Source: Yuukianura sp. NJ FZ-2021 (Eukaryota). From it: a stretch of DNA of 64,000 bases. Position numbers and translations under genes: made by a program. The stretch spans positions 2,728,001 through 2,792,000 of the forward strand of contig CM102285.1 in assembly GCA_046563655.1 (NCBI GenBank). Reading direction: 5' to 3'. Numbering within the stretch: position 1 is the first letter of the stretch; each line of letters starts with the position of its first letter. The notes under the pieces were generated by a model. The model searched no databases and had not been told where the DNA came from. It saw only the letters and a program-made list of their open reading frames with translations. Positions 1,843-32,981 of this stretch are shown one piece after another.

Positions 1843-3149
1843 ATGTTTAGCCAGAGACAGTACGATTGTTTCACGAAAATTCTTTTGCTTCTTTCACAAT
1901 GGACATACATTTGTCCATTTGAATTCAATCCAGAAACGGAAATGTTTGAACTTCGTCACAATACTGCCAGAACTTTCTTCGGTTACGTTGCCATATTTGC
2001 TCAAATGGCAAACGCAATCTTCTTTGCCTATCTCGCAAGCAAGCAATTTGTAGCGTCGCAGCAAAACGACGCCGTCGTTAGCTGTTTAATGCTTTTAGTG
2101 ACGTTGGCAGCATTAGTGGATGCTATGGCAGGAGAAGTCTGTGCAGCAGAAATCACCGCACTGGCAAACCAGGTTGTCCATATCAACAAGAAACTTGGTA
2201 AAGAAATTTAAAATTTCTACAAAAATTTGAAAAACGAAGATTTGAACAAAAATATGTCCGCTGGATTAGTTATACATTTGAAATATTTTTGTGACGAAGG
2301 GCAAGAGTTATGTGGAATAACATATGTTGAACGACGTTTTGGTGACGTTTTGTACTACGCTGTGACTTTGTCAACGGTCACAGGCGGACCAATCGCACTC
2401 AGCTTTCTGCTGTCCCAAACCTTGACTATGTTCAATTCTCCTTGCATTTCAACTCTTTACCATACGCTTGCAGTGCTATCCCTCGCTTACGCAGCAGTTC
2501 ACTTGGTTACGGAAAGCGTTCTGTTCATTCCATCAATCCAGACGCTCATATTTTGGCTCCAAAAAATTAAGTTAAAACAAATATAGTAATATTAACTTTA
2601 ACTTAAGTGTTAAAACTGTTGTAATTATTTCTGATTGTTTTTAGTCAAAACTGGTCACAAATTGTCAAATTTCGGGAAGATGTGAGCTTTGCAGAGAAAA
2701 TTTCGTTGGTCCAAGTGTACCGGACGATCCAGCTAATGAACGATCTCCACAACAGAGCTTTCGGGTCGATTTGGATTCCCGGGCAAAAATTTGTTTTACT
2801 AACTGCGTTTGGCATGTCAATCTACAGTATCCTTTTCCTCCGTTCTACACTCACTGTACCAGTACTCGTAGTTTGTTTCATGGGAATATTCTTCTCATTG
2901 GCTGGAGCAATTCCATCTGCAGTGGCAATGTCGCAAGTATACAACATTTCATATGAATTGAAACTACGCGGAGCTCAACTGCTGGCGGATGTGCCTTTAA
3001 GTGAAAGAAAACTGATGGCGACAATGTTAAGGTCAATGCCACACTTAAAAGCAAGCGTCGGAAATTTTTACTATATGGAGGGCAAAGCAAAGTTGACGAT
3101 GGTCGACAACATGCTCAATGGCGTCGCTTTTATGTTAATTTCATTTTAA
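1843..3149 (+). CDS. Multi-pass membrane protein, putative GR/OR-superfamily chemoreceptor-like (subfamily I), ~386 aa, 3 exons
   Basis: Exons 1843-2197, 2270-2570 and 2645-3149 join in frame via GT-AG introns (phases 1, 2). Multiple hydrophobic segments; C-terminal RSMPHLKASVGNFYYMEGKAKLTMVDNMLNGVAFMLISF resembles the TM7 region of arthropod chemoreceptors. Confidence 0.7.
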
Positions 3150-3177
3150 ATTATAGGAATTGTATCGTAGCAGGTGA

Positions 3178-3286
3178 AATGATCAAAACAATTCGGTCAA
3201 AACGTGAAAATGTCAACCGCTAAAACATTAGGTTAGGTTTCCGTATGTTTGATCTTCACCTTTTGACCAAATTGTTTTTGACCATT
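3178..3286. mobile_element. Small foldback/MITE-like element with TTAGG-type core
   Basis: AATGATCAAAACAATTCGGTCAAAACGTGAA pairs with TTCACCTTTTGACCAAATTGTTTTTGACCATT; central TTAGGTTAGGTT. Confidence 0.55.
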
Positions 3287-3614
3287 ATGCATGGAATCAA
3301 TCGCACTGTCAAAGGAGTTTATGAATGCCACTTAGCAGCACCAGTAATACAAAAACGACTCCTCAACACTTTCTCCTCAAAAAGTCACGTTTTTGGTGTC
3401 AACTGAATAGTTGGAAATAAGAAATGAAGTACTTTCGACCATAACAAAATGCAATTGATGGTGATTTTATTTTTAGCGTGTAAAAGCAATAGACAAATTA
3501 GTAGACAAAAAGGAATGAGGAAAAGGAGGGAAAAATCAAAATGTAGTTGAGTAGAGACTCAAATTAGCAGCAGCATTGCGTGTTGGAATCTACGCAGGTC
3601 ATAGGTCAAGTGGT

Positions 3615-6191
<2,577 letters not shown>

Positions 6192-8039: not shown

Positions 8040-11000
8040 TTAGGGTTTGTGCGTTGGTGGATCTTTTGACCTCCTTGTGCTAGTGATGAGCACAAGGAAG
8101 GATATGAGGTCACCCATTAGAATAAATCCAATGCAAACCAACAGTGGAAGAAACACTGGCTTCACAGGAAGATCAAAGTGACTATATCAAAAAGTACCGA
8201 AAATTAAAATATCTTTGATTTCAATCACAATAAAATAATTATTCAAGGAAAGCTAGCTTAGCTATTTACCTCAGAACACTTTCTCCCCGGCCTAAGCCAC
8301 AATTTAGCTCCCGCTGTATAATCCAAAAAAGCCTTCATACATGTTAAAGTTCAAAATTATGAAAACTTGATTTGATGTGAAAAAGCAATTAGTTTACCAT
8401 TAGCAGATTTCCCCTGAACTGCGCAATAGGGTTGGAACAAACTTCGAACGTCGTATTCTTAAATTCAATTCTGGCAATAGGCGGCAGTATCCACGCCACA
8501 GGGGAGAAATTCTGTGTCCAGGATACCCAATCGCCCAAATCCTTCCGATGGACCAAATATCCGCCACTTAAACTCAGCACAAGAAGAATGATCCCACCAA
8601 GAGTAATTCCCCAAGTAGTTCTTGCACAAACAAGGTCAATGGCCCTTAGCCCAGTTAGCAGTGCATAGAGACACAGTGTCGAATACAGGCAAGAGAGGAA
8701 CATCCCATTGGTGTCTCGCACTCCACTTATTGCCATGCCGGGAAGAATGAATATTCCGAGAAAGCAGACGACAAGTATGAAGTCTCCAATTCTCTGAAAC
8801 GAAAAGAATAGCATCACCCATTTTTAGGCTTTGTACTGTGTAATATTGACATTACTTGGGCAAGGAAATGAGCCGCTCTGGAATAAAGCCCTTCTTCGAT
8901 ATCTCCTTCTACTGCTGCTGCTTCACTTCGTTCCTTAGCTAGAAGAAGTAGGAAGAGAGTTACTGGAAGGAATGTAAGAAGGGCCCAATGCAGTCCCATT
9001 CTGTCATAAGCTGAGTTGACATGTCCAGAGCCCCCGAGTCGAATGTCCCAGTAAATGATGCCAACGGATGTGGAAATACCGGCAGCCACGAGCAGAAGCA
9101 AAAACCAATCAAGAAGTCGTGAGCCCAATCCGAATATCCCCAGACATCTAAACATCACATGAACAAAAACTGAATTAGTAAACGAAATCTCCGCGAGTTA
9201 AAACTCAAATCATCTTTCGAATTCCATGTGCTTGAAAGTTAAAGATTACCTCCAGATCAGAAGGACTTCTCCGAGAATAGCCCCCGTTGGACGTCTCAAT
9301 GGATCCGGAAGCGTACGTGGAGGGCCGACTTCCACAGAAGGCAGTTCTTGCCGTCGAGCCCATGCTTCTGCCAAGCCATGAATCCGTATGCTTGACTCCT
9401 GGAGAGCTTCATTGGAGAGGTCATCTTTTGTGACGAGGTCAATGTAATAGTCGGATGGATTCTTGAATGGTGGACACGGATAGTCAATGAAAGCGAAGTA
9501 AGGCAAGAGCTCCGTTCGATGACCGTAGAACAGCGTCCTTCCACCGGATAGAAGTAGAACCTTAGTAAATGTAGAAAACACTTCGAACGTAGGCGGATGT
9601 ATTGTCACTATTGCAATGCCGCTGGTCGATTGCGATCTCACTCCACCGCCTCCACGAGTCCACTCTTCCACCAGACTCATCTAATTCGTGCGACATAAAA
9701 TTGGTATTACAGTTTAATGAAATTCTCGGCTTCATCCTACCATTGCAGGTACTACGTTTCAAAATTGTTTACCAGGAAGAAAGTATCGAAGATATCCAGG
9801 CCTGTGGTTGGTGAGTCCAGCAGAAGAATGTCTGTCCGCAGGATAATTTGGCAGCCGAGAGCGACGCGCTGCTTTTCACCGCTGGTTAGGCTGGACAAAC
9901 GGCTCTTGCCAAGTCCAGTTAACCCCAGAAAATCCAACAGAGCCTCCACCTGTAGCGAATAAAGAAATAGATCTATGTTTAACAGGATTGTTGAGAATCA
10001 TCGACTAAGACGATAACAAGAACATCGTATTAGGTTTTACATCTCCACTAGGTTTCTTAAAAGCAGAATAGAACGATAAGGTTTCAATAGCGGTCAGTTC
10101 CGGATGAAGTTGGACCCCTTTCCGAACAAATCCGAGTCGTCGACCTAGTCGTTGCCCGCTAAGCACGTGCCCATTGAGCACTAATTCTCCTCCAGCCAGT
10201 TGCCGTTTTCCTGCTAAAGCTTCCAATAGTGCCGTGCCTTCATGTGCTGCAAAAGAATTTGAATTTTTATACAAATCAACTTAATACTTTTCTCAAATTC
10301 AAAAAGTGGTAATTTTATAGGAGGATAATAAGGTAAAGACAAACCATCAGTAGCCATCAGGGCCATCATTTCTCCACGACGAAGTTCAAAAGAAACCTGA
10401 TCCACCAGAAGACGCTCTCCTTTTCCATCACTAACGGATAGTCCACCAACCTGTAATCAGTGTTAGAAGTTAGACGTGACTTCTTAGACCTAAACGTAAA
10501 TGTCGAGCTTATAACAAGTATGAAAACTAAGTTTTTTTTAATGTTCTTACTTGAAGATGAGGGAGACCTTGACCTTGGTTTTGAACTTCCCCCATTTTCG
10601 GGTACGTTGGGTTTGAAAAATATTGTCCCTGGTTCCTTGAAGCGAAACCTTTTTCGTATGAAGTTGCACCCTAGAATGTCAAGCCCAAACCAAAACGAAC
10701 TTATGTTCAAATGAAATGATAATATTTTTAAATGTTGCTGAAAAAGAAACATAAAGTTTCAATTTAACACTACCCAGACACTTGCCTTTTTCGACGCAGC
10801 GAGTAAGTTCCCCTCGCTAATTGCTTGCCTCATCCCTTGACCCTGGGGTTGGTTTGTTTTTCTTCTAAACCTATTCATTACTACCCCGTCTGCCCGAATG
10901 TCTATTGCCGAAGAGGCCCTTTGCCCTGGCAGTTGTCCAGGATGTTTCGCTCTCCGTACATCATTCTCTTCATCCCCACTGGAGTCTACGGATCCATCCT

Positions 11001-11398
11001 TGGCTGATGCTGAAGGCGGAATGACCCGCGGAAGCCCGAACTTCAGATACGAAAAGGCACTTGATGCCAACTCGGACCTAAAAAAAATACAACCATTATA
11101 TAGGAACAGTACCTTGCGTGCCACTTTATAATTTACTTTCTATAAATTCCTACCTAGGACCCAAACGTGGATTTGACATGATCGAGTTGACAGTTTCTTC
11201 TTTAAGCGTGAAGTCTCCATAGGGCAAAGGGGACCGTTCTTCAGCTCCGAGTGCTGAATCTGTGAAGTCCGAATTTAGATTTTGCCTGAATATTGACCAT
11301 GCGTGAAGGTCCGACGTTGATGGATCGAGAAGCCGCCTTCCAGAAGCGTAACGACGATCTCCAACTGGAGCTCTGTCCAATTCCCACATCTCGCACAT
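8040..11398 (-). CDS. ABCG-family half transporter (ABCG5/ABCG8-like, NBD then TMD) with degenerate NBD motifs; multi-exon
   Basis: ORF pieces in order: N-terminal DLHAWSIFRQNLNSDFTDSALG, LLVDQVSFELRRGEMMAL, LTSGEKQRVALG, ILLLDSPTTGLD, VTIHPP, CPPFKNPSDYYIDL, then an ABC2-type TMD. The last exon ends ...PPTHKP at TAA 8042-8040. Some internal exon borders are uncertain. Confidence 0.88.
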
Positions 11399-12159
11399 CG
11401 GTTCAACAACGACGGAGAAACGTTACAGCTATACTTACCGTAAATCTCTATCTGTCGACCAAATTGAAAACACTACCTAGTTAATAATTACATAAAACTA
11501 AATAAGAAACCTAAATTCAACTATACTTTCATAAATGCTTGTTTACCAAACAGACCTAACGGTACATGATGATGACAAATGACAGGTAACAGGTGGGTTC
11601 ATTCCCATCAAGAGTGTGACTAATCCTCTGTGTTGTCAGACAAGTTGGGTTGAAGTGATAATACCCGCATGGGGACTTGGGTACACACACGCCAACGCCG
11701 CGATAAACCGCGTGCGAATCCAACCGTACATGCTACGTTTTTAATTCAAAATATTCAAATGAGGCTACATAGACCGTTCAACTCGTTCCAGCAGGAGATC
11801 CAACGATTCATCAGAAATCATTCGGAGAAATTTTGGAATATGCATAGTTTGTTTCTAAACTAATTTACAAAATAGAGTAACCCTAACCTAACCTCGTGAA
11901 TGCTTAATTAACGTAATACGTAGTTTATGTTAAAAAGAAGTACTCATTCTTTGCAATTTACCTACATGGTTCTTCAGTTTTTATAAAAGCACCGAACCTA
12001 TCACGTTTTTGCGACAAGGACATTGAAAAACCTTCATTTGAAACCCATTTCAAATGAAATCGTTAAATTAAATCTGGAAGGTCATTTGCAAAACAATCCT
12101 ATTTGTAATAGGATTCAGCAGTTTGTAGAGGAACGCAACTAGTGCTAAAGCAAAGGAAA

Positions 12160-12867: not shown

Positions 12868-12959
12868 TTTTAAAAATTATTACCACTGGAAAAGTTTAGA
12901 TGTGAATTTATTTCAAAACATAAATTTTGCATATAATGCGTGCAAACTTCGTTCTGTTC

Positions 12960-13085: not shown

Positions 13086-13144
13086 GTTCTGTTCAACATT
13101 TTTTTTGAATTCCGTGAGATGTTGCAAAATTTTGTAAGTCTACT

Positions 13145-14500
13145 TCACCACTGCGCGTACACGAGTACATTAACAATGCAGTTTGTCAGTACTGAATAGT
13201 AGCAAATGAGAGAATCCTTGTTCAGTTTCATGTAGGGTCCAATTTCCATTTTCAGCGGCTGACAAGCAATGGAGTCCCTTATAGCCGAAATAGACGTCGT
13301 GTAGCGCAAGCGTGATTTGAATTCCAGTGCGCGTCTACTAATGTCACCACCGCTCTTGAGCCAGACATGTACAAAAGCACAAATTATAATGTTTCCAAAT
13401 GCCATAAGCGTAACTATTTGCGTAGGAAAATATCTGTGTAGAATGACAGTGCAGTTCAACATTGTATGATCAAGAATGAGAAAAAAGAAGGCGTATGGTA
13501 GCATTGTCCCGTATGCTGCTTGATAGTTCGTATCCAAAATTTGCAGTTCTTTGTACGCAATGATGCTTTCACGCGACTCCCAACTCCAAGCTTCCCCTCG
13601 GACCTGATTTGGTTCAAACTTGCCCCTACGAAACATTCAAAACAATTTCGGAATTACTTTAGTTAGTAAGTAATTAAGACTATATAGGTAGTTTCGGATG
13701 TAATAAAACAAATTTATGTACAATGTATGTATAAAACCTGAAAACTCTGAGCCAGTGTTTGACTGTATGACAATGCATGACCAGGAACGATGCAAAAACA
13801 CCGATGGCATACATGCCACTCACAGTGACATGCCATTCTACAAGAAAATATGCAAAAAGAACAGGCGGAAATTTGTAAACAGACGTCGGCAGAACTTGTG
13901 AAGGCCAAAATTGTGGACTCATTGGATCGAACAAGACGTTCATCGCTGGTGAGAAAGGGAATACCATCACAAAGTAATGGAATATTGCAGAAATAGTGTT
14001 AGCGTCAATATGGTAGCGAGGCCTCTTTGTCTGCATGTCGTCACTACGATGATAAAGTGCTAAAAGCAATAAAAATATTTCTGAATTTTGCTTTTATCAT
14101 AAATTAAGTTATGAGAATGTTTAGACAATTTAGACAAGATATTACTTGTAAATCGTTGATGAAGTGTGAGCAGTTTTTTATAGTAGATGACGAGTTCCCG
14201 TCTGTATATAACAGAGTGATATTGAAAAAGAAGTGAAAGTAGTCGGCAAAACAGCATGACACCAACTTTTGCTACGACCATCACTGTGCTGCTAGGATTC
14301 ATCAGCAGAGTGTACAGCAGGACAATTTGGTAGCAAGTATCAACAGTGTAGTAGAACAGAGCCAAGAAGTAAAGGAAATAGTAACGTCGTTTGGTCTTGT
14401 GATCCATTTTTTCCGGTTTCCATATTGACGCAGAAATTTTGACTTTGGTAGCGTAATCATTTGTTCTTTCAAAATGCTGAAATGCCTTTTCGGTCAACAT
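13145..14500 (-). CDS. Chemoreceptor-like multi-pass membrane protein, subfamily II copy A, ~385 aa
   Basis: Exons 14500-14146, 14059-13738 and 13625-13145 are in frame. Starts MLTEKAFQHF; ends ACQPLKMEIGPYMKLNKDSLICYYSVLTNCIVNVLVYAQW. Confidence 0.75.
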
Positions 14501-15181: not shown

Positions 15182-16793
15182 TTATTGCGTGTAAAGGATA
15201 ACTTGAACAATGTAATCCGTTAAGACTGAGTAATAGCAAATCAGTGAATCTTTGTCCAGTTTAAAGTAGGGACCTATTTCCATTTTAAGTGGCCGACAAG
15301 CTCTGGCGTCTTTTACAGCCACAGCAGACGCAGTATAACGCATGCGCACTTTAAACTCCAAGGAGCGTTGGCTTACGTCTCCGCCATTTTTGAGACACAC
15401 ATGCATAAAGGACGAGACTACAATATTTGCCACAACCAGTACTCCCACGATCTGAGTTGGAAAATACTTGTGTAGAATTATAGCGCAGTTGAACATCGTG
15501 TGATCCACAAATAGGGAAAAGTATGCGCATGGCAGCAGTGTCCTGTATGCCGCTTGGTAGTTGGCATCCAGTACTCGCATTTCTTTGTACGCCATGATGT
15601 ATTCGCGTGATTCACAATTAACAACTTTGTCCAAATTGTGTTTCTTCTCAAACTTTTTTCTAAAGAATTTTAAAAATAAAAATCTGATTAATCTGTGATT
15701 CTACCTCTTTTATCCCCCTTAACAATAAAAACCTGAAAATTTGAAGCCAGTGTGTAATTGTGTGAGAATGAAAGACCAAGAATGTTGCAAAAATGCAATC
15801 GACGTATATACCACTTGCGGTGACATGCCATTCCAATAGAAAGTATGCAAATAAAACCGGCGGAAATTTGTAAACTGATGGTGGCAAAATATGGCATGGC
15901 CAAAACTGTGGACTCATGGGGTCAAAGAACACGTTCATAGCTGCCAAAATTGGGTAAATATACACCATGTAGTGACATATTGCTGCGAGTACATTTGCGT
16001 CGAGGGTGCTCCGGGACGCTGGAGGACGGACATATTCGCTGCGATGATGCAATACTAGAAAACAATCAAATATCAAGGCTCCTTGACAACCATTTAGTAT
16101 TCTTTAGCAGGTTGCCTAAAGCCTCAGTTCTTTAGAAAAAAAAATGAGAATAAAAAAAACAGTAAACAAAAGTACCAATTTGAAAAAATTAAGTTTGTGG
16201 TACTAATTTTCTATGCAAAATAATGTACAAATCTTTTATAATACTATGGTTACGATTGCAACTGAACTTTCTTGTGAAATCTAAAAAAGCAAAATTATTA
16301 CGCAACCCTTTAAACAAAATTAAGTCAACAAACCTTGATCAAATATATTGCAACGTTATTTAGCTTGTTTTATGCATTCTTTTTGAGATAACTGCTATAC
16401 TTTGCTAAAAATATCAGCAAAAGATAACACAAAATTACATGTAAATCGTTGATGGAAGGTGACTAGTTTATTGTAGTAAACGACCAGTTCCCTCCGATAT
16501 ATTAAAGAGTGATACTGAAAAAAGAGTGAAAGTATTCTACATATCAGAATGACTCCAACTTTTGACAGAACTGTCACTGTGATGCTTGGATCCATCATTA
16601 GATTGTAGAACAGAACAATTTGGTAAGCACTATCAACAGTGTAATAGAACAAAGCCAAACAGTAGAAAAAATAGTGACGAAATTTGCTCACACGACCAAT
16701 ATTCTCCGGTTTCCAAATGGCAGCCGAAGCCTGTATTTTAGTGCCAAACTCAATCGTTTTTTCAAAATGATAGAATGCCTTTTCGGTCAACAT
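15182..16793 (-). CDS. Chemoreceptor-like protein, subfamily II copy B, ~384 aa
   Basis: Exons 16793-16439, 16054-15733 and 15659-15182 are in frame; clear paralogue of copy A. Confidence 0.75.
16074..16337. mobile_element. MITE with CAAGG...CCTTG termini and 9-bp TSD, in intron 1 of copy B
   Basis: Imperfect TIR CAAGGCTCCTTGAC / GTCAACAAACCTTG; TSD ATCAAATAT (16065-16073, 16338-16346); second copy at 42090-42304. Confidence 0.8.
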
Positions 16794-17110: not shown

Positions 17111-17646
17111 AAAATTGGGTCAGCAGTTTCCAAACTAAAGACAGATTTTTCCATTGTAACGCAAATTGCGTGAAGTCAACCGTGACACTGGATATGTGAA
17201 CGTTTCAATTTCATTTAGGCATGCACAATGAAAAGGAGGAGAAGTTATAAAATAATTCACATAGGTTTTGTTTTGCGGAAGCTTGAAATGGATCCTTGTA
17301 TTTTGGAAATTGGGCTTATGGGTTAGTCGAAATTTTTAGGCAACCTCGATAAATTTCTTAACCTTGTTGTAGCCCTGAATTCAAGGTCAGTCGATGAGAC
17401 AGTTTTAAACTCTGTTTCCTACAATTAATCGTCATTTGGTAAATATTTTCAAAAAACATACCCTGAAGAAACTATTTTTACGTGAGGTTGCTGAGCGTAT
17501 TCGAAATTTACAAAAATCTAAATTGTAAACTGCTTCGTACTTCTTAAAGGCCAAAGATTGTAGACACTTTTTGCTTCATAGAGTTTCATTCTCTAAGTTT
17601 CTAAGTTACAAAATCGTACAACAGTGAGAATTTGCCTAATACTTGT

Positions 17647-17880
17647 TTATTGCGTGTACAAGAGTGTCCGAACACTGCCATTTGTCAAAATAGCATAATA
17701 GCACATGAGCGAATCTTTGTCCAGTTTCGTACGGTCTTATTTCAATCTTGAGCGGTCGACAAGATCTGGAATGCTTGCGGCTGACTTGGACGTAGTGTGT
17801 CGCATGCGTGATTTGAATTCAAGGGCGCGTTGGTTAATGTCCCCACCACTTTTAAACCAGACATGGGCAAATGACGACGA
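17647..17880 (-). pseudogene. Exon-3 fragment of a subfamily II receptor
   Basis: Encodes HVWFKSGGDINQRALEFKSRMRHTT...RPLKIE...KLDKDSLMCYY...LLYTQ; the upstream exons are missing. Confidence 0.75.
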
Positions 17881-18121
17881 GTATAAACAATGAAAAGTAG
17901 GAGTTATAAAATTATAAAAGTTATAAAATAATTATTATGGCATACGATATAAGAATTTGTTTTGTAAAAGTTGTGGAATTGAAAGAACTTCATGAAATTC
18001 GTTTTTGGAAAATATATTTTTGAGTTGACACCATTTGGAGGAAGATTGCTAAAATTTGTTCAAGTTTTAATACTATTAACATACTATGGTAAACAAGAAC
18101 AAAATTCAGTCAGGGACATTA

Positions 18122-19722: not shown

Positions 19723-22043
19723 CTACTGGGTGTACAGGAGCACATTAACGATACAATTAGTTAAAACTGCATAGTAGCAAATGAGCGAATCCTTGTCAAG
19801 CTTTGCGTAAGGCCCAATTTCTATTTTCAGAGGCCTACAACCCTTTGCCTCCCTTACAGCCAAAATTGACGTCGTGTAGCGCATATGCGTTTTAAATTGA
19901 AGCGCACTTTGGCTAACGTCTCCCCCACTCTTGAAACAGACATGCACAAATGCGGATACAGCAAAGTTTGACATTAGAGAAATTGCAATTGTACGTTTGA
20001 ACGCAGAACGCGCGTTTACAGCTGACCACTTTCTTTCTGCGTTAGCTGGCAAAGTTCACGTAGGGATTCTAAGTTGAAATCGCACGTTTGAACTTAGAAT
20101 TTTTAAACGTACAAATTCCAAGAATGGAACTTTAAAAATGGAATAGAAAAACCACCATAAGCAAGTATATCCGGTACAAGCATGCTGAAAACTTTTTACC
20201 GCTTACATAAACAGGCTTATTCAACAAACTTTCAACCCCATGACCGTTAGGTCACAAAACGTTTGGAGTCAAAGGTCACACATTGACCTGGCGTAACCCT
20301 ATCTATGCCACTGATATACTCACCGGAAATGGTTTGACCTCTTGAGTCATACAATGTTTATATGCTGCGACTTTTGACCTTCAATTCAAAAATTAGCGCA
20401 AGTCACGCGATGACCTAGCAGTTGACCCCCGAGTGACTTTTGAACTAAAAATCAGAAATTGCAACATTTCATGAATGAGAGTATCACGCCCTTTCCAACG
20501 ATATTTTTCTTGCATAAATTCACCACATAAGACAATGTGGTGACCCTTGACCCCAGGTTCTCATGTTGTGCGGAATAAAAATTTGGTAGAGCTACTGTAG
20601 TAAATCATATATACTGTAGTACTGCAAATAAATCATAGTTATAGCCCATATAAATGAACTGATATATATATCAGTTCATTTATATAGATATTTTATAATA
20701 TAGTATAAGGTTATATTACATTAGTATATTAATTATAAGTTATATTTATCAATTACGTCATAAATATAACTTATTATAATTAATATAATAACAATTTATT
20801 TCAATATAATTGGAAATCCAACATCTAAAACTGAACGTAGGTTCAAACGCGCAATGGATGATTTGTACGTTCAAACTCTTCCAAACTTATAAGTTTACGT
20901 ACGGAGAAAGTCCTCCGCACTAGCGCCCCCTAACCCGTAAAGCTCGCGTAACTCAAAACTCCTACGTGAACGCATAAGTTTACGTACGATTGCAATCTAC
21001 CTATTGCCAATGGCACTAGGATCTGAGTCGGAAAATATCGATGTAGAATTATTGTGCAACTGAACATTGTATGATAAAACATTAGGATAAATAATGCAGA
21101 AGGCATCAGCGTTCTATATGCAACTTGGTAACTGACATCTAAGAGTTGTAGTGCTTTGTAGCCCATGATGCTTTTACGTGACTCGCAATTCGAAACTTTT
21201 CCCCAGATTTCTTCAGGCACAAAATTCTCTCTAAAGTAATAAAAAATTCAAAAATTTCAACATTTTGGATTTCCTTTTTACATTTTTTTTCTAATATGTT
21301 TTGGAACCTTAAAATTTTGAGCCAGTACTTGACTGTATGAAAATGCATGACCAAAAACATTCCAAAAATACATCCAGCAAACACTCCGCTTGCAGAGACA
21401 TGCCACTCTACGATAAAGTATGCAAACCAAATTGGCGGGAACTTGTAAACAGATGTAGGGAGAACTTCAGATGGCCAATACTGTGGACTCATCGGTTCAA
21501 AAAATACGTTCAGAGCTGGAAAAATCGGGAACAGCATCACCGTGTAGTGACAAAGAATAGCAATTGTATTGGCCGTGAGGTGGTACCACGACTCTTTTGG
21601 CCGCTGATCGTCTCCACGATGATGCAGTGCTAAAAATAATCTCAATTCAGTTTTCGTATTGGAAACACATAGGTAGAAGAAAATTTACTTGTGAAATGTT
21701 GATGAAGTTTGACCAACTCCTTGTAGTACATCACAAGTTCTCGCCGATACAAGATACAATGGTACAGAAACAACAGTGCTATTGTTCGACACACCAGAAT
21801 CACTCCAATTTTTGATACAACGGTCATACTAATGTTGGGATCCCTCAGCAGACCATGGAACATAACTATTTGGTAGGAAGCATCCACTGAATAATACAGT
21901 ACATGCAAGATGAACAAAAAATAGTGACGAAATTTCTTGGTACGATCCGCTGCCTCTGGTTTCAAAATCACTAGCGAAATTTTAACTTTGGTACCAAACT
22001 CAATTGTTTTTCTAAAATGTTCAAAAGCCTTTTGGGTCAGCAT
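19723..22043 (-). pseudogene. Subfamily II receptor copy C, exon 3 interrupted by a 1027-bp transposon
   Basis: Exons 22043-21689, 21629-21308 and 21230-21003 + 19972-19723. Removing the insert and one TSD restores a 478-nt exon 3, the same length as in copies B and D. Confidence 0.78.
19976..21002. mobile_element. Non-autonomous TIR element with 3-bp TSD (PIF/Harbinger-like)
   Basis: Imperfect TIR AGAGAAATTGCAATTGTACGT / ACGTACGATTGCAATCTACCT; ATT on both sides (19973-19975, 21003-21005); absent from the paralogous exons. Confidence 0.72.

Positions 22044-22560: not shown

Positions 22561-22563
<3 letters not shown>
22351..22563. mobile_element. Tc1/mariner-like MITE
   Basis: Perfect 28-bp TIR CAGTGAGAGGCACGAAAACCTGCACACC, TA-flanked, 213 bp. 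Confidence 0.88.
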
Positions 22564-22602
<39 letters not shown>

Positions 22603-22603
22603 T
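22564..22603. repeat. (TA)n microsatellite followed by a T run
   Basis: Directly visible. Confidence 0.9.
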
Positions 22604-23049
22604 GGAGAGTAATTGACATTAGCATTTAGCTTTATCAACAAGGGTTAGGGAATTTCTGGGTTGGGTTGAGGTCCTATGAGGTGGGGCGGTGGTACAGTCA
22701 GATAGTTGGTGAGAAGTTCTGAGGGAAGGACGAAAGGCTTTCTGCTAGAGCTGAACGGGCTAGGGCCCTACCACATATCACAGCTCCAGGCAAGTGACAG
22801 GAACAGCATCGTACGCATACCGGCCCACGACCCCCCTCCACAACAGCAACTACTGACCTCTTCACACGCACCCATAACCCCCAAACTGACCTATCATCCG
22901 AACACCCCATCTGGGCTAGGAAAGTGGAAAAACCATTTCTGGAAAACGACTTTCGTGTCGGCGACGCCGGGACTCGAACCCGCGCCCGTCCAAGGTGTTA
23001 GTAGGATAGAGCCGAAGCTCTAGTCCCCCCGGCCTACGGGCCTTGGACT
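22604..23049 (-). mobile_element. tRNA-derived SINE-like insertion
   Basis: The minus strand has a pol III B-box/T-arm GCGGGTTCGAGTCCCGGCG near its 5' end and a GC-rich body. GTGTTTTGATAT is duplicated at 22338-22349 and 23050-23061. Confidence 0.65.
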
Positions 23050-23400
23050 GTGTTTTGATATTTTGGAGGTCAATTACTCAAGGTCAGTTGATGAAGAATA
23101 GGAGCTTGAAGCGTTATTTCTTTTTACATTCAAAGTTCTACATTCCTAGAACCGTCTAACGCAAACATCACAATACCCGAAGCCGCTTTGAAGTTAGCAA
23201 TTTTTTTGTTTGCTATACTTGTTTTCGAGGTTTTCGTTTTCTTGTTTTGCTATACTTATACGACTTGTCTTTGAAAGTAATTGAGAACGATGAAACTGCA
23301 GTATTTTATGTAAGCTTTTTCAAATTTATTTAAATTTTTGCTCAGAATTCACCAAATTTGATGCCTACAAACAATGAAGACATACCAAGTAGAGGTATAG

Positions 23401-24759
23401 TTATTGAGTGTAAAGGAGTACTTGGACAATGTAATTCGTTAAGAGAGCGAAATAGCAAATGAGTGAGTCCTTATCGAGTTTCATAAAGGGCCCAATTTCC
23501 ACCTTGAGCGGCCGACAAGCTGCCGCGTCCATTAAAGCCAAAACAGACGTGCTACAGCGCATGCGCGCTTTAAACTCTAATGCGTTTTGGCTAACGTCTC
23601 CACCGCTTTTGAGCCACACATGCACGCCTGATGAGAGTACAATATTTCCTATAACGCCTATCACAACGATCTGAGTAGGCAAATATTTATGCAGAATTAT
23701 CATGCAGTTTGTCATTGTGTGATCGAAAATTAATGCAAAGTATGCGCATGGCGTTGCAGTCCTGTATGCTTTTTGGTAGATTGCATCTAGTAGTCGCAGT
23801 TCTTTGTACGCCATGATGTACTCGCGTGGCTCACAATTAAGAACTTCATGCAGATGAAGTTTTTTCTTAAACTTGTTCCTAGAGAATTTTAAAAATCGTA
23901 ATTATTCTCAATGATTTCTGCATTGTCTATTTTTTGATTAATAAAACCTCAAAATTGTGAGCAACTCTTTTAATGCTTGAGGATGCATGATCAAGAAAGA
24001 TCCAAAAACGATACCAGCGTATATACCACTTGCAGTTACATGCCATTCCACTAGAAAGTAAGCAAACAATACTGGCGGGAATTTGTAAACTGATGTTGGC
24101 AAAATATGGGATGGCCAAAACTGTGGACTCATGGGATCAAGAAACACATTCATTGCTGGCAAGATTGGAAAAATTAGCACGTGGTAGTGACCTATTGCTG
24201 CAAGTAAGTTTATGTCGAGGTAGTATCGCGACTTTCCTGTTGGAATATACTCACTGCAATAGTGCAACCCTAAAAAAAACAAATATATTATATGACCACG
24301 ATGTTAAGCTTGTTTTGCATTTTACTTTTATGACAATTGACCAGCCTGGTTGGCCCTAGTTTGCTAAATTTATAAGTGAAAAATATAAAGTTGATCTCGA
24401 TTACTTGTAAACCGTTGATGTAGGTTGACTAGTTTGTTGTAGTAGATGACCATTTCCCGTCGATATATAAACGAATGATATTGGAAAACGAGTGAAACCG
24501 TTCGAAATACCATAATGACTCCAACCTTTGCTAAAACTGTGACGGTAACGGTAGGATCCATTGCTAGACTGTGGAACAGAACAATTTGGCAGATAGTGTC
24601 AACAGTATAGTAGAACAGACCCAAAAAGTAGAAGACATAATAATAAATTCTGCTAATGCGATTCATTTCTTCCGGTTTCCAAATGGCTCCCGAAAGTTTA
24701 AGTTTAGTACCGAATTCAATAATTTTTTCAAAATGATAAAACACCTTTTCCGTCAACAT
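23401..24759 (-). CDS. Chemoreceptor-like protein, subfamily II copy D, ~384 aa
   Basis: Exons 24759-24405, 24269-23948 and 23878-23401 are in frame, with the same exon lengths as copy B (355/322/478). Confidence 0.75.
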
Positions 24760-25200
24760 TCTCAAAATATTGAAACCGAATGAAGGGTTTTAGTTGAGCT
24801 GATACACGTTTTTATTAGCTTGTGTCAAACTCAACCTTGCCACAAAAGTGGTTTCCTTGAAGTTGTGGTAAGACGTGGGAATGTTTTCAGTTTAATTTGA
24901 GTATGAGCAATCAAAAGGAGGGGAACTGATAAAATACTTAAAATAAGCCGACGTTTGTTTCCGCCAGGCGCTTGTAGAGTTGAAGAGTTTTCAAAGTTTT
25001 TGTGATGTATTGTGTATGCCTTTAGGTTAGCACAACTTTGCATTGAAATGTTGAACATTGTTTTCTCTAACCTAACACTTCAAGGCCTTATGATAAGAAA
25101 TTATGTAAATTTGCAATATCACCTTAACTAGCACCCATTCAATATTTACAATTTGGAGTTACTATTTGACATATCAACGGGTAGCAGACATGTTTTTGAT

Positions 25201-26038
25201 TTAGCGGGCACAAATGGAGTTTGTATCGATTTGTGACCGGCATGAAAGGTCGACAAAAAGTTTTGGATCAAAACCGAGCTGCTTAAGATGATCATGAATT
25301 TGCTCTTTGTGTGCAGGGGAAAGCGAATCTGGAGTTGGACCCCACACGGTGAAAGATGATTCGTTGTCTTCCCAGCACGTAACACCGACTAGAAAGTTTT
25401 TGTTGTCTGTCAACGTAAAGGTCAATTTGCCACACAGCGCTATTTGGGACAACACAAAAATTCATTGTCAGATTTCTTGAACACACAAAAATAACTCTAA
25501 ATAAAATTTTTTTAAAGGCACTTACCATATTTACTGCGTGCCTTGAAGTGGATGACTAAATTTTCTTCGATGGTTACGTCGTACTTCATTGGCTTCAAAG
25601 CTCCAAAACCGATGCAGTTGAAATCCAGCAGATCACAAGTCGGGCAGGAGTAGTTGGCAAGCGAGTGTGGAAGATCACAAATTTTTGTGTCTAAAATGTC
25701 ACTGGCAAATCGGTACAGTTCCAGTTGATCGACAAGTAGGTAGTACCATGTCTTAACTGTTCCATTGGTAACCTAAGTTATGTAAAAATGTGTTGGTACA
25801 TTGTGAACTCTTTTTAGTTGTTAAAAGTTTGAAGTTCATGAATTTCTTTGCTCAGTGTTTCAAATAAAATTTAATTAATTAAAAAATAACACAATACCCA
25901 TTCAAAATCCAGTCCGGGATAAGATTGAACAGCGAAACAGCGTCCTTCTTTTGTCGAGTCTTCATTAAGTGCTGGAACGGGAGAAATCCCAAGAAGTGCA
26001 GTCGTGAAGATGTATACAATCGGCTTCATTTTGAGCAT
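25201..26038 (-). CDS. Secreted lipocalin-like protein copy 1, ~208 aa, 3 exons
   Basis: Exons 26038-25898, 25772-25526 and 25439-25201. Signal peptide MKPIVYIFTTALLGISPVPA; C..V.....LDFEW...GT..TWY (SCR1-like); LTDNKNFLVGVTC (SCR2-like); C-terminal helix EQIHDHLKQLGFD as in ApoD-type lipocalins. Confidence 0.62.
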
Positions 26039-26697
26039 TTGAAGTTATTTTTAAAGAGTTGAGGAGCTTTGGAGGTAAGAAGGGAAAAATTGAAAAAAAA
26101 ATCAAACCACGCACACATATTTTCAATAAACGCAATAATGCCTGGGGGTTTTAAAGCTATAAACTGACCTTCGTCTATGTACGATAAACATTGCTCGGTC
26201 AAAATCCTATTTATACAGTTTCGCTGGTCTCAAGGTTTCAAGACAAAAAAAAGTGTTCCTTTGAGCAGCGAAACATATTTACAATTTTACGATGGGATTC
26301 ATGTGACGATTCATGTCCATTTTTTGTGCAGCTGAATTATGGTCAAGGCTTCTAGACAACTAAAAGCTAAACATATTGCTCTAATTTGTAACAACCTGCG
26401 ACGATCCCAAATTTTAAATATAATTCCAATGTGTATTGTAGTGTAAGAAATTGAGACTTAGTACTTATTTCATTTTTCATTATATCCATTTTTATCGTAT
26501 ATTTCTTGCTTATTTTTTTATGACTTATTTGGCTTTTTTTATTACACAACGACGCAAAAAACCTTACAGTAGAGCTCAAAGTTGACTGAAAAAAATTCCT
26601 GGGTTTCCCAACGTATTACTAGGACATAGTAGTAAATACTTATTTAAATTTATTAATTGATTTACATTTATAGGCTTATACAGTGTTTATTTATTTC

Positions 26698-28089
26698 CTA
26701 GCGTGAACCTTGACTTAGCATACACACGAACGATATTGTGCAACTTATAATGTTCTGATTGATGTTTATAACCATTCCTTTATCTACATAGTTCAATGGC
26801 CCACATCTAATACAACACGGTCTCAAAGACTTGATGAATACAGCATATTCTTTGTTTTTATTTGCTTCTACTATTTGAAATTTGGCAATACTGGAACTTG
26901 AATTAGTGAAAATTGACGCAGCAAATGCAACGAAAATGTTAAGGCTAACGATTAATATTGTCGCCACGCCAAAGAAACTAAATAATTCCAGTGAAAAGCC
27001 CAACCCAAAGATTCTTGTATAACACACCACAATACACATCCCAAAAAATACTATTACAGAGACAAAAGGCAATGCCATAAGTTCACTAAATACTTCTGAC
27101 ATAATGTAAACTGTTTTATAAAAATTTGGGTTCAAAACTGCTAAGCTTTGTTTTGGGGAATTTCTTAACGAAGGCGTATGTAACCACTGGAGCAGAACAC
27201 TCATGCTTATGATAACTATCAGTTTATATTGTTCGTACTTGTAAAAAATGAAGTAGACATGTATCCACACAACAATCGTACCTGTGGTAGCAGCAGATAT
27301 TACTATAAACAGTTCTATGTTGTTGTCCAATGTAGGAAAAGTGGAACCTAGTACATATGAACACAGTCTCATCGTATCTGCAAAACAAGCCACGGGAACA
27401 ATACCGATGGAAAACGCAAAGTACTTTTCAAATATGGACATAACGTTCAGAGCTTGGAAGTTCAGTTGTGTTCCGTCGATATAGAAATTCGACCCTGTCA
27501 AGAAATGAAATCATACAGTCCATTTTGTTTTTGAAAATTTGTATAATACTAAACTGTTTAACTTTATTTGCTTAACTTAACTAATTTAACCTTTGTTTAA
27601 ATGTATAACTTTTTGAGTACTCCATCAATTTACAGCGCCTAACCTACCTTGTTCCGACGTCAATATGTACATTAGCATGTTCATATGTTGTTGCCAGAGC
27701 TTCTTTTCCCAAATCTGTTGAACATCAAGAACGACGTTGTGGCATATTATTAAACTAGCCGCCAATAGTAGCATTGTCAGAACTGTATTAAGTTTTCCAG
27801 TGTAGTTGCAGTAAGCACATCCAGCACATATTAAAACAGTGATACAGTCCAGTGCAAATATGCGAAAGGAATTTCTGACATATTTCTCGGATTCATCCAC
27901 GACAAACATTTTTTTGCGAGAACTCCAATACAGTGGATTCTGGTACCGGTCATGTGCTTTGCCAATGTAATGTAGCAACATATCAACGACTTCACGATTA
28001 TGGTTAAGTTTAGCAGGCCTAACCTTGTGACGAGTTATTTTGTTTCTCTTAAGTTGCAACATGATGCTTTTTTCTAATACTTTGATCAT
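26698..28089 (-). CDS. Chemoreceptor-like multi-pass membrane protein, subfamily III copy E, ~412 aa, 2 exons
   Basis: Exons 28089-27648 and 27494-26698 (phase 1). Many TM segments; ends KSLRPCCIRCGPLNYVDKGMVININQNIISCTISFVCML. Confidence 0.68.
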
Positions 28090-29000
28090 TCCAATAACGA
28101 CACGAAATTCCCTACGTTATTTCTGCGTTCAGTGTCTATCGTTCGTTCTTTAGGAAACTGTTCTTTGGCGTTTACGGTTTCACAAATTTTCTGCAAAAAT
28201 TAAGGTTCAGTTACACACAATAGCAATGTACAACGCTATAAAATAAACTAGAGTTTCTTTTCAACAACCACCTACCAAAGACGCTTAAAAAACGAATGAT
28301 TCTTTGAAGATAATGGATCGATTGAGCTTTACAAAATTTTGATGCAAACATTTTTGTTTGCAAAAAATAATCTTGATGCGAAGCGCTTTGCCAACTAAAG
28401 ACAAAAGGGTATAGGCCACTAAATTTTTAAGTTGTAAGATAGAAATCGAGTAACAATACTATCCACCAGCATAATAAGGCGTGTGGCACGCCCCGCGTGC
28501 CTACTGCCTATCTCACTAAAATGCTTTCTTGATAGTATATTTATGGTATTTATACATTATTAAACGAAAATCCAAAAATGCCATCGTATTGTAGAAAAAG
28601 CTACTTTATGGTTTGATGTCTTTTGCTTGTCTGTCTGTCCGGTGGTTGGTTGTACTGTAGTAGTCTGTCTCACAAGATTCAGCTTCAAATTCTTGGTGAA
28701 CCAACACATCAAGCAGTCAGCGACATACCACACATACGTTTGTAAGTAAATGTCTATGACAAAATAATTTTCAACAACATTGCATTATATGCGTGGCTCA
28801 AGGTAAGTTGGTCTTCATCGACTTAATTTAGATTCTGTCCAAATGTTGAATTTGATGGTTGATTTTTATAGGCACATTTTTAAAAACGTTTTCCACCTTT
28901 TGTAGTTTTGTGTGTAAGAAAGTACAGACCGAATTCGTTTTCCTCCGTTGTTTAGGATTCGTCAACTCCATCGCCAGCTAGAGAAAGTTCCTGTTTTTCG

Positions 29001-29192
29001 CAGAATCACCCCATTTTGTGGTACAAGGGTAACTGTAACGCTTGCATCGTTCAATAAACCGTAGGCCATAACCGTTTGGTAGCAAATATCCGCCGAGTAA
29101 TGCACTTGAGCGACGTAGAACAACAAATAATAACGAAATCTCTTTGTGCGATCCATTTTTTCTGGTTTCCAAATTACTGCAGAAAGTTTAAG
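29001..29192 (-). pseudogene. Exon-1 fragment of another subfamily II paralogue at the duplication junction
   Basis: Encodes WKPEKMDRTKRFRYYLLFYVAQVHYSADICYQ...GVIL; truncated at both ends. Confidence 0.7.
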
Positions 29193-29201
29193 CTTATCCC
29201 C

Positions 29202-29409
29202 TAGGATCCATCATTAAATTGTAGAACAGAACAATTTGGTAGATAGTGCCAATAGTGGAGTAGGACAGAGCCAAGCAGTAGAAACAGTAGTGACGAATTT
29301 TGCTTAAACGACTCATTTTCTCCGGTTTCCAAATGGCTCCCGAAATTTTGACTTTAGTACCGAATTTAATCATTTTTTCAAAGTGATAAAATGCCTTTTC
29401 GATCAACAT
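29202..29409 (-). pseudogene. Truncated subfamily II receptor (5' part of exon 1 only)
   Basis: MLIEKAFYHFEKMIKFGTKVKISGAIWKPEK...MMDP, then homology ends. Confidence 0.75.
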
Positions 29410-29890
29410 TTTCAAAATATCGAAACCGACTGAACAGTTTTAGTCGAAGTGATACACGTTTTTATTAACTTGAAGCAAACTCAACCTTGCCACAAAGATA
29501 TTATTCCTTGAAGTTGTGGTAAGACGCGGGCATACTTTCTCAATTTAATTTGAGTATAAGCAATCAAAGCGAGGGGAATTAATAAAATAATTAAAGTAAG
29601 CCGACATTTGTTTCCGCCAGGCATTTGCAGAGTTGAAGAGTTTTGAAATTTGTATGGTATTGTATGGTCAATGTCTTTAGATTAGCAGAACTTATCGTAA
29701 GAAAACGTTGAGCATTATTTTCCCCAACCTAACTGTTGTAGGCCTTATGATACGGAATAATGTAAATTACATTAGGAATATAACCTTAACTAGCACCCAT
29801 TAATTATTTACAATTTGGAGTTATTATTTGGCATATCAAAGGATAGCAGACATGTTTTTGATTTAACCAATACTTGGATTTTGCATCGGT

Positions 29891-30675
29891 TTAGCATGAA
29901 AGGTCGACGAAAAGCTTCGGATCAAAACCGACTTGCTTGAGGTGATCATGAATTTGCCTTTTGTGCGCAGGCGTTAGCGGATCCGGAGTTGGACTCCAAA
30001 CGCTAAAAGATGATTCGTTGTCCTCCCAGCAAGTAACACCAACCACAAAGTTTTCGTTGTCTGTCAATGTAAACGTGAATTTGGCAGACAGAGCTATTTG
30101 GTACAACATGCATTGTCAGATTTTTTTAAACCCACAAAGATAATTCTTTTTTCTTTGAATGCACTTACCATATTTACTGCGTGCTCTGAAGTGGATAGCT
30201 AAATTTTCGTCGATGGTTACGTCGTACTTCCTTGGCTTCAAAGCTCCAAAACCAATGCAGTTGAATCCCAGATCACAAGTCGGACAGGAGTAGTTGGCAA
30301 GCGAGTGCGGGAGATCACAAATTCTTGTGCCTAAAACGTCAGTGGCAAATCGGTACAGTTCCAGTTGATCGACAAGTAGGTAGTACCATACCTTAACTGG
30401 TCCATTGGTAACCTAAATTATGTCAAAAAGTGTCGCTAATTGTGAAATCTTTTTTAGTTAAAAGTTTGAAGTTCATGAATTTCTTTGCTCAGTGTTTCAA
30501 ATAAAATGTAATTAATTAAAAAATAACACAATACCCATTCAAAATCCAGTCCGGGATAAGATTGAACAGCGAAACAGCGTCCTTCTTTTGTCGAGTTTTC
30601 ATTAAGTGCTGGAACGGGAGAAATCGCAAGAAGTGCAGTCGTGAAGATGTATACCATCGGCTTCATTTTGGACAT
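29891..30675 (-). CDS. Secreted lipocalin-like protein copy 2, ~195 aa
   Basis: Exons 30675-30535, 30412-30169 and 30093-29891; paralogue of copy 1 that stops earlier at DLSC. Confidence 0.62.
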
Positions 30676-31321
30676 TTGAAGTTATTTTCAAAGGGTTGAG
30701 GAGCTTTAGAGTTACAAGTAAGAAGGGATAAATTGGAAAAAAATTTAAGCTACAATACACATGTTTTCAATAAACGCTATAATGCCTGGGGGTTTTAAAG
30801 CTATAAGTTGACCTTCGTCTATGTACGATAAACATTGTTCGGTCAAAATCCTATTTATACAATTTCGCTGGTCTCAAGGTCTCAAGACAAAAAAGTTTTT
30901 CTTTGAGCAGCGAGACATACTTTACAATTTTACAATGAGATTCATGTCCGTCTGTTTGTGCAGCCGAATTATGGTCAAGGCTTCTAGACAACTAAGCTAA
31001 GCATATTACTCTAATTTGTAACAACCTGCGACAATCCCAAATTTTTAATATAATTCAAATGTGTTTTGTAGTGTACAAATTGAGACTTACTGATTTCATC
31101 GTTCATTATATCCATTTTTATCGTATATTTCCCGCTCAATTTTCTTATGACTCATTTTACTTTTTTATTACACAACTTCGCAAAAAACCCTACAGTATAG
31201 TTCACAGTTGACTGAAACAAAATTATTGGGTTCCCCAAAGTATCAAGACATAGTTGTAAATACTAGTTTAAATTGATTAATTGATTTACATTTATAGGCT
31301 TATACAGTGTTTATTTATTTC

Positions 31322-32981
31322 TTAGCGTGAACCTTGGCTTAACATACACACGAACGATATTGTGTAACTTATAATGTTCTGATTGATGTTTATAACCATC
31401 CCTTTATCTACATAGTTCAATGGCCCACATCTAATACAACACGGTCTCAAAGACTTGATAAACACAGCATATTCTTTGTTTTTATTTGCTACTATTTGAA
31501 ATTTAGCGATGCTGGAACTTGAATTAGTGTAAACTGATGCAGCAGATGTAACGAAAACGTTAAGGCTAAAGATTAATAATGTAGCCAAAGCAAAGAAACT
31601 AAATAATTCCAGTGAAAAGCCCAACGCAAAGAATCCTGTGTAACACACCACAATAAACATCCCAAAAACTACTATAACAGAGACAAAAGGCAATGCCACA
31701 AGGTCACTAAATACTCCTGACATAATGTAAATTGTTTTGTGAAAATTTGGTTTCAATAAACTTTGTTTTAACGAAGGCGTATGTAACCACTGGAGCAGAA
31801 CATTCATGCTTATGATAGCTACCACTTTGTATTGTTCATACTTGTAAAAAATGAAGTAGACATGTATCCAAACACCAATCGTGATTGTGGTCGCAGCTGA
31901 TATTGCTATAAACAGGTCTACGCTGTTGTTCAATGCAGGAAAAGCTGTACCTAGTACATACGTACACAGCTTCATCAAATCTGCAAAACAAACGACGGGA
32001 ACAATACCTAGGGAAAACACAAAGTACTTTTCAAATATGGACATGACGTTCAGAGCTTGTAAGTTAAGTTGTGTTCCGTCGATGTAGAAATTCGACCCTG
32101 TAAAAAAAATCAAATCATACAGTTCATGCAAGGTAAATAGAATACTTATAGGTACGGTCGTTGAAAATTGTTTTTTCAAAACTGAGTTGCTATGGGATTT
32201 CATTGACTCCGAGTTCACTCATTTACAGTGTTGTTCAAAATTTTCAGCATTTTAGTCTCAATACTTTCGCCGCAAACTTAAAAATAGCTTAAAAACTCGG
32301 ATGAACCTGTATTTTCACTCGGAGTGACGTCACTGTGAGTGAAATTGTAAACAAATAAAGAATCGGTTTTGGTCGCTAAGGCATTTTTGCCGCCCCCTGC
32401 AGTTCATGCATTTTTTTAGTTTTGTCTATTACTAAACTGTTTAACTTTATTTGTTTGTTTCACTTAACTTAACTCACTTAACTTTGTTTAAATGTATAAA
32501 CTTTTTGAATACCCCATAAATTTAAAGCGCCTAACCTACCTTGTTCCGACGTCAATACGCACATTAGTATGTTCATATGTTGTTGCCAGAGCTTCTTTTG
32601 CCAAATCAGTTGAACATCAAGAACGACGTTGTGACATACCATTATACCAGCCGCCAATAGTAGCATTGTCAGAACTGTATCAAGTTTTGCAGTGTAGTTG
32701 CAGTAAGCACATCCGGCACATATTAAAACAGTGATACAGTCCAGTGCAAATATGCAGAAGGAAATTCTGACATAATTCTCGGATTCATCTAAGACAAACA
32801 TTTTTTCGCGAACACTCCAATGCAGTGGATTCTGGTACCGGTCATGCGCTTTCCCAATGTAATGTAGCAACATATCGATGACTTCACGATTATGGTTAAG
32901 TTTAGCAGGCTTAACCTTGTGACGAGTTATGTTGTTTCTCTTAAGTTGCAACATGCTGCTTCTTTCTAATATTTTTACCAT
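31322..32981 (-). CDS. Chemoreceptor-like protein, subfamily III copy F, ~405 aa
   Basis: Exons 32981-32540 and 32097-31322; paralogue of copy E with short in-frame deletions. Confidence 0.68.
32129..32399. mobile_element. CAAGG-ended element with 9-bp TSD in the intron of copy F
   Basis: Absent from the paralogous intron of copy E; CAGTTCATG on both sides (32120-32128, 32400-32408); shares ~120 bp with 12960-13085. Confidence 0.78.

Follow-up and report, generated by a model that had tools for sequence, protein, structure and literature searches.

A cluster of genes for multi-pass membrane proteins lies between 1.8 and 33 kb of a 64,000-nucleotide stretch of DNA from Yuukianura sp. NJ FZ-2021 (contig CM102285.1, positions 2,728,001 to 2,792,000 of the forward strand), the whole of which is called the window here. 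The cluster is most probably a tandem array of highly divergent gustatory receptor (GR)-lineage members of the seven-transmembrane ion channel (7TMIC) superfamily, and its products are predicted to be chemoreceptors; we give this reading a probability of roughly 0.7. Gene models were rebuilt from stop-to-stop open reading frames (ORFs) and the raw window sequence. They comprise six intact copies (384–412 amino acids), one disrupted copy and extra fragments, and fall into three groups: a plus-strand singleton (G1), the genes at 13–25 kb (group I) and the genes at 26.7–33 kb (group II).

1843..3149, plus strand: G1, 386 amino acids; exons 1843–2197 (355 nt), 2270–2570 (301 nt) and 2645–3149
13145..14500, minus strand: I_a, group I, 385 amino acids; exons 14500–14146 (355 nt), 14059–13738 (322 nt) and 13625–13145 (481 nt)
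15182..16793, minus strand: I_b, group I, 384 amino acids; exons 16793–16439 (355 nt), 16054–15733 (322 nt) and 15659–15182 (478 nt)
20930..22043, minus strand: I_d, disrupted group I gene; exons 22043–21689 (355 nt) and 21629–21308 (322 nt) intact
23401..24759, minus strand: I_e, group I, 384 amino acids; exons 24759–24405 (355 nt), 24269–23948 (322 nt) and 23878–23401 (478 nt)
26698..28089, minus strand: II_a, group II, 412 amino acids; exons 28089–27648 (442 nt) and 27494–26698 (797 nt)
31322..32981, minus strand: II_b, group II, 405 amino acids; exons 32981–32540 (442 nt) and 32097–31322 (776 nt)

The seven copies of about 385–410 amino acids, one of them disrupted, that had been proposed from the sequence alone in an earlier note (the original prediction) are thus recovered. 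In the disrupted gene, exon 3 starts at 21230, diverges past about residue 318 and runs into a premature stop at 20930, giving it a length of 301 nt.

All 12 introns are of the GT...AG type, and every one is in phase 1 or 2. G1 contains introns of 72 and 74 nt, in phases 1 and 2; an alternative acceptor is possible for its second exon, which would then start at 2300 instead of 2270. The introns of I_a, I_b and I_e are likewise in phase 1 and then phase 2. A first exon of exactly 355 nt, followed by a phase-1 and then a phase-2 intron, is common to G1 and the four group I genes, while the second exon, of 322 nt in group I, measures 301 nt in G1. The group II genes, which are 82% identical to each other, show neither the 355-nt exon nor the pair of introns: their first exon is 442 nt long and their only intron is in phase 1 (153 nt in II_a, 442 nt in II_b). 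The phase-1 intron is located after the helix that follows the second transmembrane segment (TM2), and the phase-2 intron, present in two groups only, before helix S5. The last exons of the intact genes are uninterrupted and 478–797 nt long; in the structural model, that of I_b encodes S5, S6, S7a, a beta-hairpin and S7b. Two other gene starts were considered for group II and dropped, an upstream ATG exon at 28351–28272, whose ATG is not kept in II_b, and a 355-nt first exon, for which no ATG is present at the right distance. The identical 355-nt exon and phase-1/phase-2 introns claimed for the singleton and a very different second subfamily therefore hold for G1 and the 13–25 kb genes and fail for the 26.7–33 kb genes. 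The claim stands only if the 13–25 kb genes were meant by 'subfamily II', the genes ending in SCTISFVCML having the 442-nt exon.

No significant similarity between the groups is detected by BLASTP. However, when the last exon of group I was used in an exhaustive HMMER search, 27 relatives from outside the window were retrieved at E ≤ 0.001. These are single-ORF fragments of 137–239 amino acids, each containing the whole last exon, with S5 to S7b in one open frame. A further relative, P0028, was the sole match of exon 2 of II_a in a word-indexed search for near-relative proteins, and brings their number to 28. A family hidden Markov model (HMM), built from group I and the 27 relatives and excluding G1 and group II, was scanned over the 1,253 ORFs of the window. 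It matched the last exon of G1 with an E-value of 1.8e-12, II_b with 1.2e-6 and II_a with 2e-4, the next, unrelated, ORF following at 0.52, and it revealed no further member outside 1.8–33 kb. Aligned to the group I family with hhalign, G1 reaches a probability of 94.8 (140 columns) and group II one of 92.7 (93 columns). As judged from these sequence comparisons, the three groups form one family, because both the left-out-group HMM and hhalign connect their carboxy-terminal regions. That exon 1 is 355 nt long in both G1 and group I is not backed by a gapless alignment and may in part be coincidental.

In a tree of the carboxy-terminal regions, the six window sequences occupy three separate places. 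Group I is nested in a supported clade of 13 members, group II is paired with P0028 (100/100) and G1 forms a long, lone branch. The groups are thus old subfamilies with relatives elsewhere, rather than recent local inventions, and the description of the branch as lineage-specific finds no support here, since separate relatives of each group occur elsewhere in the tree. Four of the relatives (P0019, P0024, P0025 and P0027) are longer single ORFs of 199–239 amino acids that reach upstream of S5, as in group II, so the phase-2 intron before S5 is absent from part of the wider family.

Synonymous divergence (dS) within group I is 0.7–1.5, with ratios of nonsynonymous to synonymous substitution (dN/dS) of 0.16–0.28 (0.16–0.19 for I_a against I_b and I_e); for II_a and II_b, dN/dS is 0.48 at a dS of 0.16. 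On these sequence grounds the cluster genes are best regarded as real and constrained. Their dN/dS of 0.16–0.48, the 12 canonical introns and the 27 outside relatives set them apart from chance ORFs.

Membership of the GR/odorant receptor (OR) fold was decided by predicted structure; sequence libraries barely detect the family. The parts folded were exon 2 of group II, covering S3 to S7b (model 1; 264 amino acids, predicted local distance difference test (pLDDT) score 72.8), and the last exon of group I, covering S5 to S7b (model 2; 158 amino acids, pLDDT 86.9, predicted template modelling score (pTM) 0.73). When compared with 48,161 chains, both models pick GRs and ORs almost exclusively, and are aligned over 91–97% of their length. 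With Foldseek, the first 13 matches listed for the group II model are all ORs or GRs (best E 0.18), as are the 19 matches listed among ranks 1–20 for the group I model (probability up to 1.00, TMq up to 0.70, best E 0.021). The alignments are co-linear up to the carboxy-termini of the receptors, while unrelated matches align over 77–161 residues. The carboxy-terminal two-thirds of the proteins are thus predicted to have the GR/OR fold, with long helices S4 to S6, a short S7a, a beta-hairpin and a terminal S7b.

Helix S7 of GRs is described as consisting of S7a, a beta-hairpin and the pore-lining S7b (PMC12635824, in the part of the text dealing with this helix). According to DSSP, the group I model contains a helix at residues 112–120, strands at 127–128 and 132–133 and a helix at 138–157, and the group II model a helix at 214–221, bridges at 229 and 235 and a helix at 238–262. 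As modelled, both groups have the S7a, beta-hairpin and S7b arrangement of GRs. The proposal of a poorly characterised branch of the 7TM ion channel chemoreceptors is supported by these models, and the comparison with OR and GR structures comes out in its favour for the modelled parts of groups I and II. The complete group I proteins (I_a, I_b and I_e) show seven Kyte-Doolittle hydropathy peaks, with 33–36 lysine and arginine residues on the loops of the amino-terminal side and 2 on the other side. A complex prediction with four copies of the last exon of I_b, for which no alignment was used, scored 0.00 with an uncertain fold, and speaks neither for nor against the assignment.

The loop preceding the final helix had been claimed to follow the pattern [RKC]-x-P-x5-G-x-[FY] in all genes. 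Written as such, the expression matches three of the six intact proteins, all of group I. G1 has P-x6-G-N-F, with one extra residue between the proline and the glycine, and group II has R-P-x5-G-P-L. What remains of the claim is that the loop and the terminal hydrophobic helix are homologous across the groups, as aligned by hhalign. The family consensus of the loop is [S/A]-C-R-P-L-x3-[V/I]-G-x-[F/Y], with the glycine present in 33 of 34 sequences. In the models, this conserved loop corresponds to the beta-hairpin between S7a and S7b, and the final hydrophobic helix to S7b. The consensus of the tail is [N/D]-Y-T-[I/V]-x-L-L-[L/Y], mostly [N/D]-Y-T-I-x-L-L-L, without a conserved glutamine or phenylalanine.

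Sequence libraries were searched exon by exon. The GR profile 7tm_7 (PF08395) is 370 positions long and has a gathering score of 26.6 bits. Among the 18 exon translations, only exon 1 of G1 gives a signal, with residues 12–92 matching profile positions 2–82 at 16.3 bits (E 0.0063), below the threshold. Together with a second sub-threshold match, among the relatives and given below, it is co-linear with the profile: the amino-terminal exon matches its start and the carboxy-terminal exon a region near its end. The OR profile 7tm_6 (PF02949) has no match among the 18 exon translations at E ≤ 10 or among the 28 relatives at E ≤ 0.5. Of the two profiles that the original prediction had named, then, one gives sub-threshold matches only and the other none. 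Word-indexed searches for longer relatives gave 235 candidates with the last exon of I_b, none at E ≤ 0.001, and 743 with the last exon of G1, none at E ≤ 0.01. No full-length predicted protein of the family was found among 1.84 billion representatives; in large protein collections the branch is seen only as single-exon ORF fragments. Neighbours proposed by a protein language model, which are taken as leads only, are clusters of arthropod hypothetical proteins (0.97), and on this lead the family apparently belongs to arthropods. The named clusters among the neighbours listed, each at 0.90 and again leads only, carry DUF3537, DUF267 (on 10% of members), which we take to be the nematode SRR family, and 7tm_7 (on 16% of members). 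DUF3537 is given as a 7TMIC family in the relevant section of PMC9998090.

Several results weigh against placing the cluster in the GR lineage. None of the 18 exon translations reaches the 7tm_7 gathering score, and among the 28 relatives only P0005 gives a match, which is also sub-threshold (residues 24–126 to profile positions 215–323, 22.4 bits, E 8.6e-5). Sequence searches of the PDB with a profile, with exon 1 of G1 and with P0005 gave no match at E ≤ 10, and no Foldseek match of either model attains E ≤ 0.001. Over its first 120 residues the group II model has a pLDDT of 55–65 only, and the models together cover no more than S3–S7b of group II and S5–S7b of group I. Seven hydropathy peaks and the charge bias expected for an intracellular amino-terminus, as had been predicted for all genes, are found in group I, but G1 has six peaks and group II eight. 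The profile of group I exon 1 shows no similarity to exon 1 of G1 or II_a in hhalign (probabilities 0.2 and 0.1). The TYhhhhhQF motif of TM7 is absent, the tails being ...TDYIVQVILYTQ, ...NGVAFMLISF and ...SCTISFVCMLSQGSR, and none of the three carboxy-terminal phase-0 introns of GRs is present. The motif's absence and the intronless last exon had both been read correctly from the sequence. TYhhhhhQF is, however, not strictly required for a GR, because it is also missing in accepted GR clades, as stated in the corresponding part of PMC5203786.

A different placement within the superfamily is possible, though we think it rather doubtful. The three groups and their 28 relatives could be a separate, old 7TMIC family, phylogenetically neither GR nor OR, maybe comparable to the gustatory receptor-like proteins (Grls) of Drosophila. 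Such a family would be marked by a distinct signature (Y-R-x-L-Q-x-L ... S-C-R-P-L-x3-V-G-x-F ... N-Y-T-I-x-L-L-L) and a distinct gene structure, with a phase-1 intron after the post-TM2 helix and an intronless S5–S7b exon. Its pore gate would do without the canonical glutamine and phenylalanine, and the family would have escaped genome annotation entirely. Membership of the OR branch rather than the GR branch is very improbable, given that the group II model scores higher against GRs (10.4–11.0) than against ORs (8.1–9.7) and that the only Pfam signals are to 7tm_7, with none to 7tm_6 in the 18 exons or the 28 relatives.

The proteins might also share the 7TMIC fold without being chemoreceptors; their role could be non-sensory, or at least not chemical, as has been suggested for GrlHz or PHTF and is known for the nematode light sensor LITE-1. 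The fold evidence fits this explanation equally well, the canonical glutamine and phenylalanine of the pore motif are missing, and 7TMIC members with non-neuronal expression or of unknown function exist, as reported by Benton & Himmel 2023 (PMC9998090). We nevertheless consider it unlikely: chemoreceptor arrays typically expand in tandem and accumulate pseudogenes and fragments, which is unusual in housekeeping 7TMICs, and three old subfamilies in one array, with relaxed constraint in recent duplicates (dN/dS 0.48), are chemoreceptor-typical as well. Less probable still is an unrelated, lineage-specific family of multi-pass membrane proteins, whose likeness to GRs and ORs would reflect a generic helical bundle or an artefact of predicting partial sequences. 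The curated threshold was passed by no sequence search, and the group II model is based on a shallow alignment over its first 120 residues, as such a family would have it. Two independent models from two groups nonetheless select GRs and ORs almost exclusively, S7a, hairpin and S7b together are a specific feature, and the two sub-threshold 7tm_7 matches lie at the expected profile positions.

If the genes are GR-lineage chemoreceptors, as we prefer to read them, the solved GRs and ORs provide a model of their action. By this analogy, the amino-terminus would be intracellular and the proteins would assemble into tetramers, held together by a cytosolic anchor domain formed by parts of S4 to S7a. 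A central cation pore lined by S7b would open upon binding of a small ligand in a pocket of S1 to S6, and the proteins would act as chemoreceptors in sensory neurons. The ancestral carboxy-terminal phase-0 introns would have been lost and the TYhhhhhQF pore motif would have decayed. As the canonical glutamine and phenylalanine are absent, the gate would have to be formed by different residues within the [N/D]-Y-T-I-x-L-L-L tail. The array may have grown by tandem and segmental duplication accompanied by pseudogenisation, as is usual for chemoreceptor genes.

The cluster resembles arthropod GRs (7tm_7; solved structures are those of DmGr43a, BmGr9 and DmGr64a) in protein length (about 385–410 amino acids), in its tandem arrangement with pseudogenes, in the seven transmembrane segments with the amino-terminus inside that hydropathy and charge suggest for group I, in the predicted S3–S7b fold with S7a, beta-hairpin and S7b, and in the end of the protein a few residues beyond the last helix. 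It differs from them in that 7tm_7 is matched only below the gathering score, TYhhhhhQF is replaced and carboxy-terminal phase-0 introns are lacking. From insect ORs and Orco (7tm_6) it differs by the lack of any 7tm_6 signal in 18 exons and 28 relatives.

Comparable departures have been published. In the part of Penalva-Arana et al. 2009 (PMC2680840) that concerns them, Gr42–46 of Daphnia pulex are described as having lost all three ancestral phase-0 introns; Gr42–44 have a phase-1 intron near the amino-terminus, Gr45 has no intron at all, and two phase-2 introns are present in Gr46. Going by this published intron description only, the phase-1 intron pattern of Gr42–44 is like that of group II, although the intron sets of Gr42–46 and of our cluster are not identical. 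The large, expanded GR clades TuGR-A and TuGR-B of Tetranychus urticae, in which TYhhhhhQF is unrecognisable (Ngoc et al. 2016, PMC5203786, in the sections on these clades), also have introns that depart from the ancestral pattern and occur in clusters with pseudogenes; our genes differ from them in being without any phase-0 intron. The GR/OR fold of the Drosophila Grls was found by structure, sequence similarity being almost absent, and they are conserved only in flies (PMC9998090, as far as the sections on Grls go). Compared by description, they are similar to the cluster in being recognised by fold only, in occurring in tandem in some cases and in being candidate chemoreceptors, but Grl36a, according to the same sections, keeps a phase-0 intron shared with Gr36.

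The architecture called atypical in the original prediction is so in that introns and motif differ from canonical GRs. Intron loss and motif decay of this kind are nevertheless already published, in the portions of the literature cited above on Daphnia and spider-mite GRs, and the cluster is another case of a known kind of gene family and no new kind of system. Our literature searches, which cannot exclude one, found no paper describing the signature of this family, and neither arthropods nor Daphnia, crustaceans or chelicerates are mentioned in the Himmel et al. preprint (10.1101/2023.08.30.555482). The picture of the range of existing receptor kinds is left unchanged. Chemoreceptor repertoires are, however, counted by sequence similarity, and here a whole sub-branch is missed by Pfam, by PDB sequence searches and by word-based searches. 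Should genes of this kind prove widespread, the host lineage would have more receptors than have been counted, and comparative statements on how taste and smell receptors were gained and lost would have to be looked at again. The pore helix of the family, in natural variants without the glutamine/phenylalanine gate, is useful for questions of gating in 7TM ion channels.

Besides the gene copies, the array contains pieces of further ones:

17639..17931, minus strand: 3'-end remnant of a group I gene (S6–S7 region only), a pseudogene fragment; found by tblastn, HMM E-values 4.2e-10 and 4.6e-4
19723..20055, minus strand: group I 3' piece matching residues ~295–384 of I_b; HMM E-value 1.3e-30
~29001..29409, minus strand: two group I first-exon fragments, left by segmental duplication

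The first and the last of these entries (~17639–17931 and 29001–29409) were missing from the earlier list of genes. The piece at 19723–20055 is located about 0.96 kb downstream of the truncated body of I_d, with which it overlaps by about 24 codons in a protein alignment. Between it and the remnant at about 17.7 kb lies a lysine-rich ORF of 162 amino acids (18551–19140, plus strand) without a Pfam match, which may be of mobile-element origin and tied to the disruption of the adjoining array. Overlapping ORFs of 99–105 amino acids on both strands, also without a Pfam match, occupy 22698–23023, between I_d and I_e; this stretch may be a repeat or the remnant of a mobile element.

The stretches 24552–29006 and 29202–33871 are the two copies of a tandem segmental duplication, about 4.5 kb long and about 84–86% identical. 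This duplication produced II_b, copied a small-ORF gene and truncated a group I copy, of whose exon 1 only the 5' part remains. Inside the duplication, between group I and group II genes, is a duplicated pair of cysteine-containing ORFs of two exons each (for example '...CDLPHSLANYSCPTCDL...'), at 25146–25772 and 29891–30412, both on the minus strand and without a Pfam match.

The window as a whole is eukaryotic in character, with a G+C content of about 34–46%, short GT-AG introns and animal-type genes. Rfam and tRNA scans of the window gave nothing. Four other genes are recognisable in the window:

3615–6005, minus strand: alpha-tubulin gene with introns (Pfam Tubulin, E 4.8e-40; Tubulin_C, E 4.3e-31), at a local G+C peak of 0.46
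8389–11400, minus strand: ABCG-type half-transporter of several exons (Pfam ABC2_membrane and ABC2_membrane_7)
12346–12867, plus strand: EF-hand protein encoded by a single ORF (EF-hand_7, E 1.8e-10), immediately upstream of the group I array and on the opposite strand
37344–41100, plus strand: multi-exon oxidoreductase dependent on flavin adenine dinucleotide (Pfam DAO, E 5e-14)

From the text of its ORFs, the last of these is presumably an enzyme of the L-2-hydroxyglutarate dehydrogenase type.

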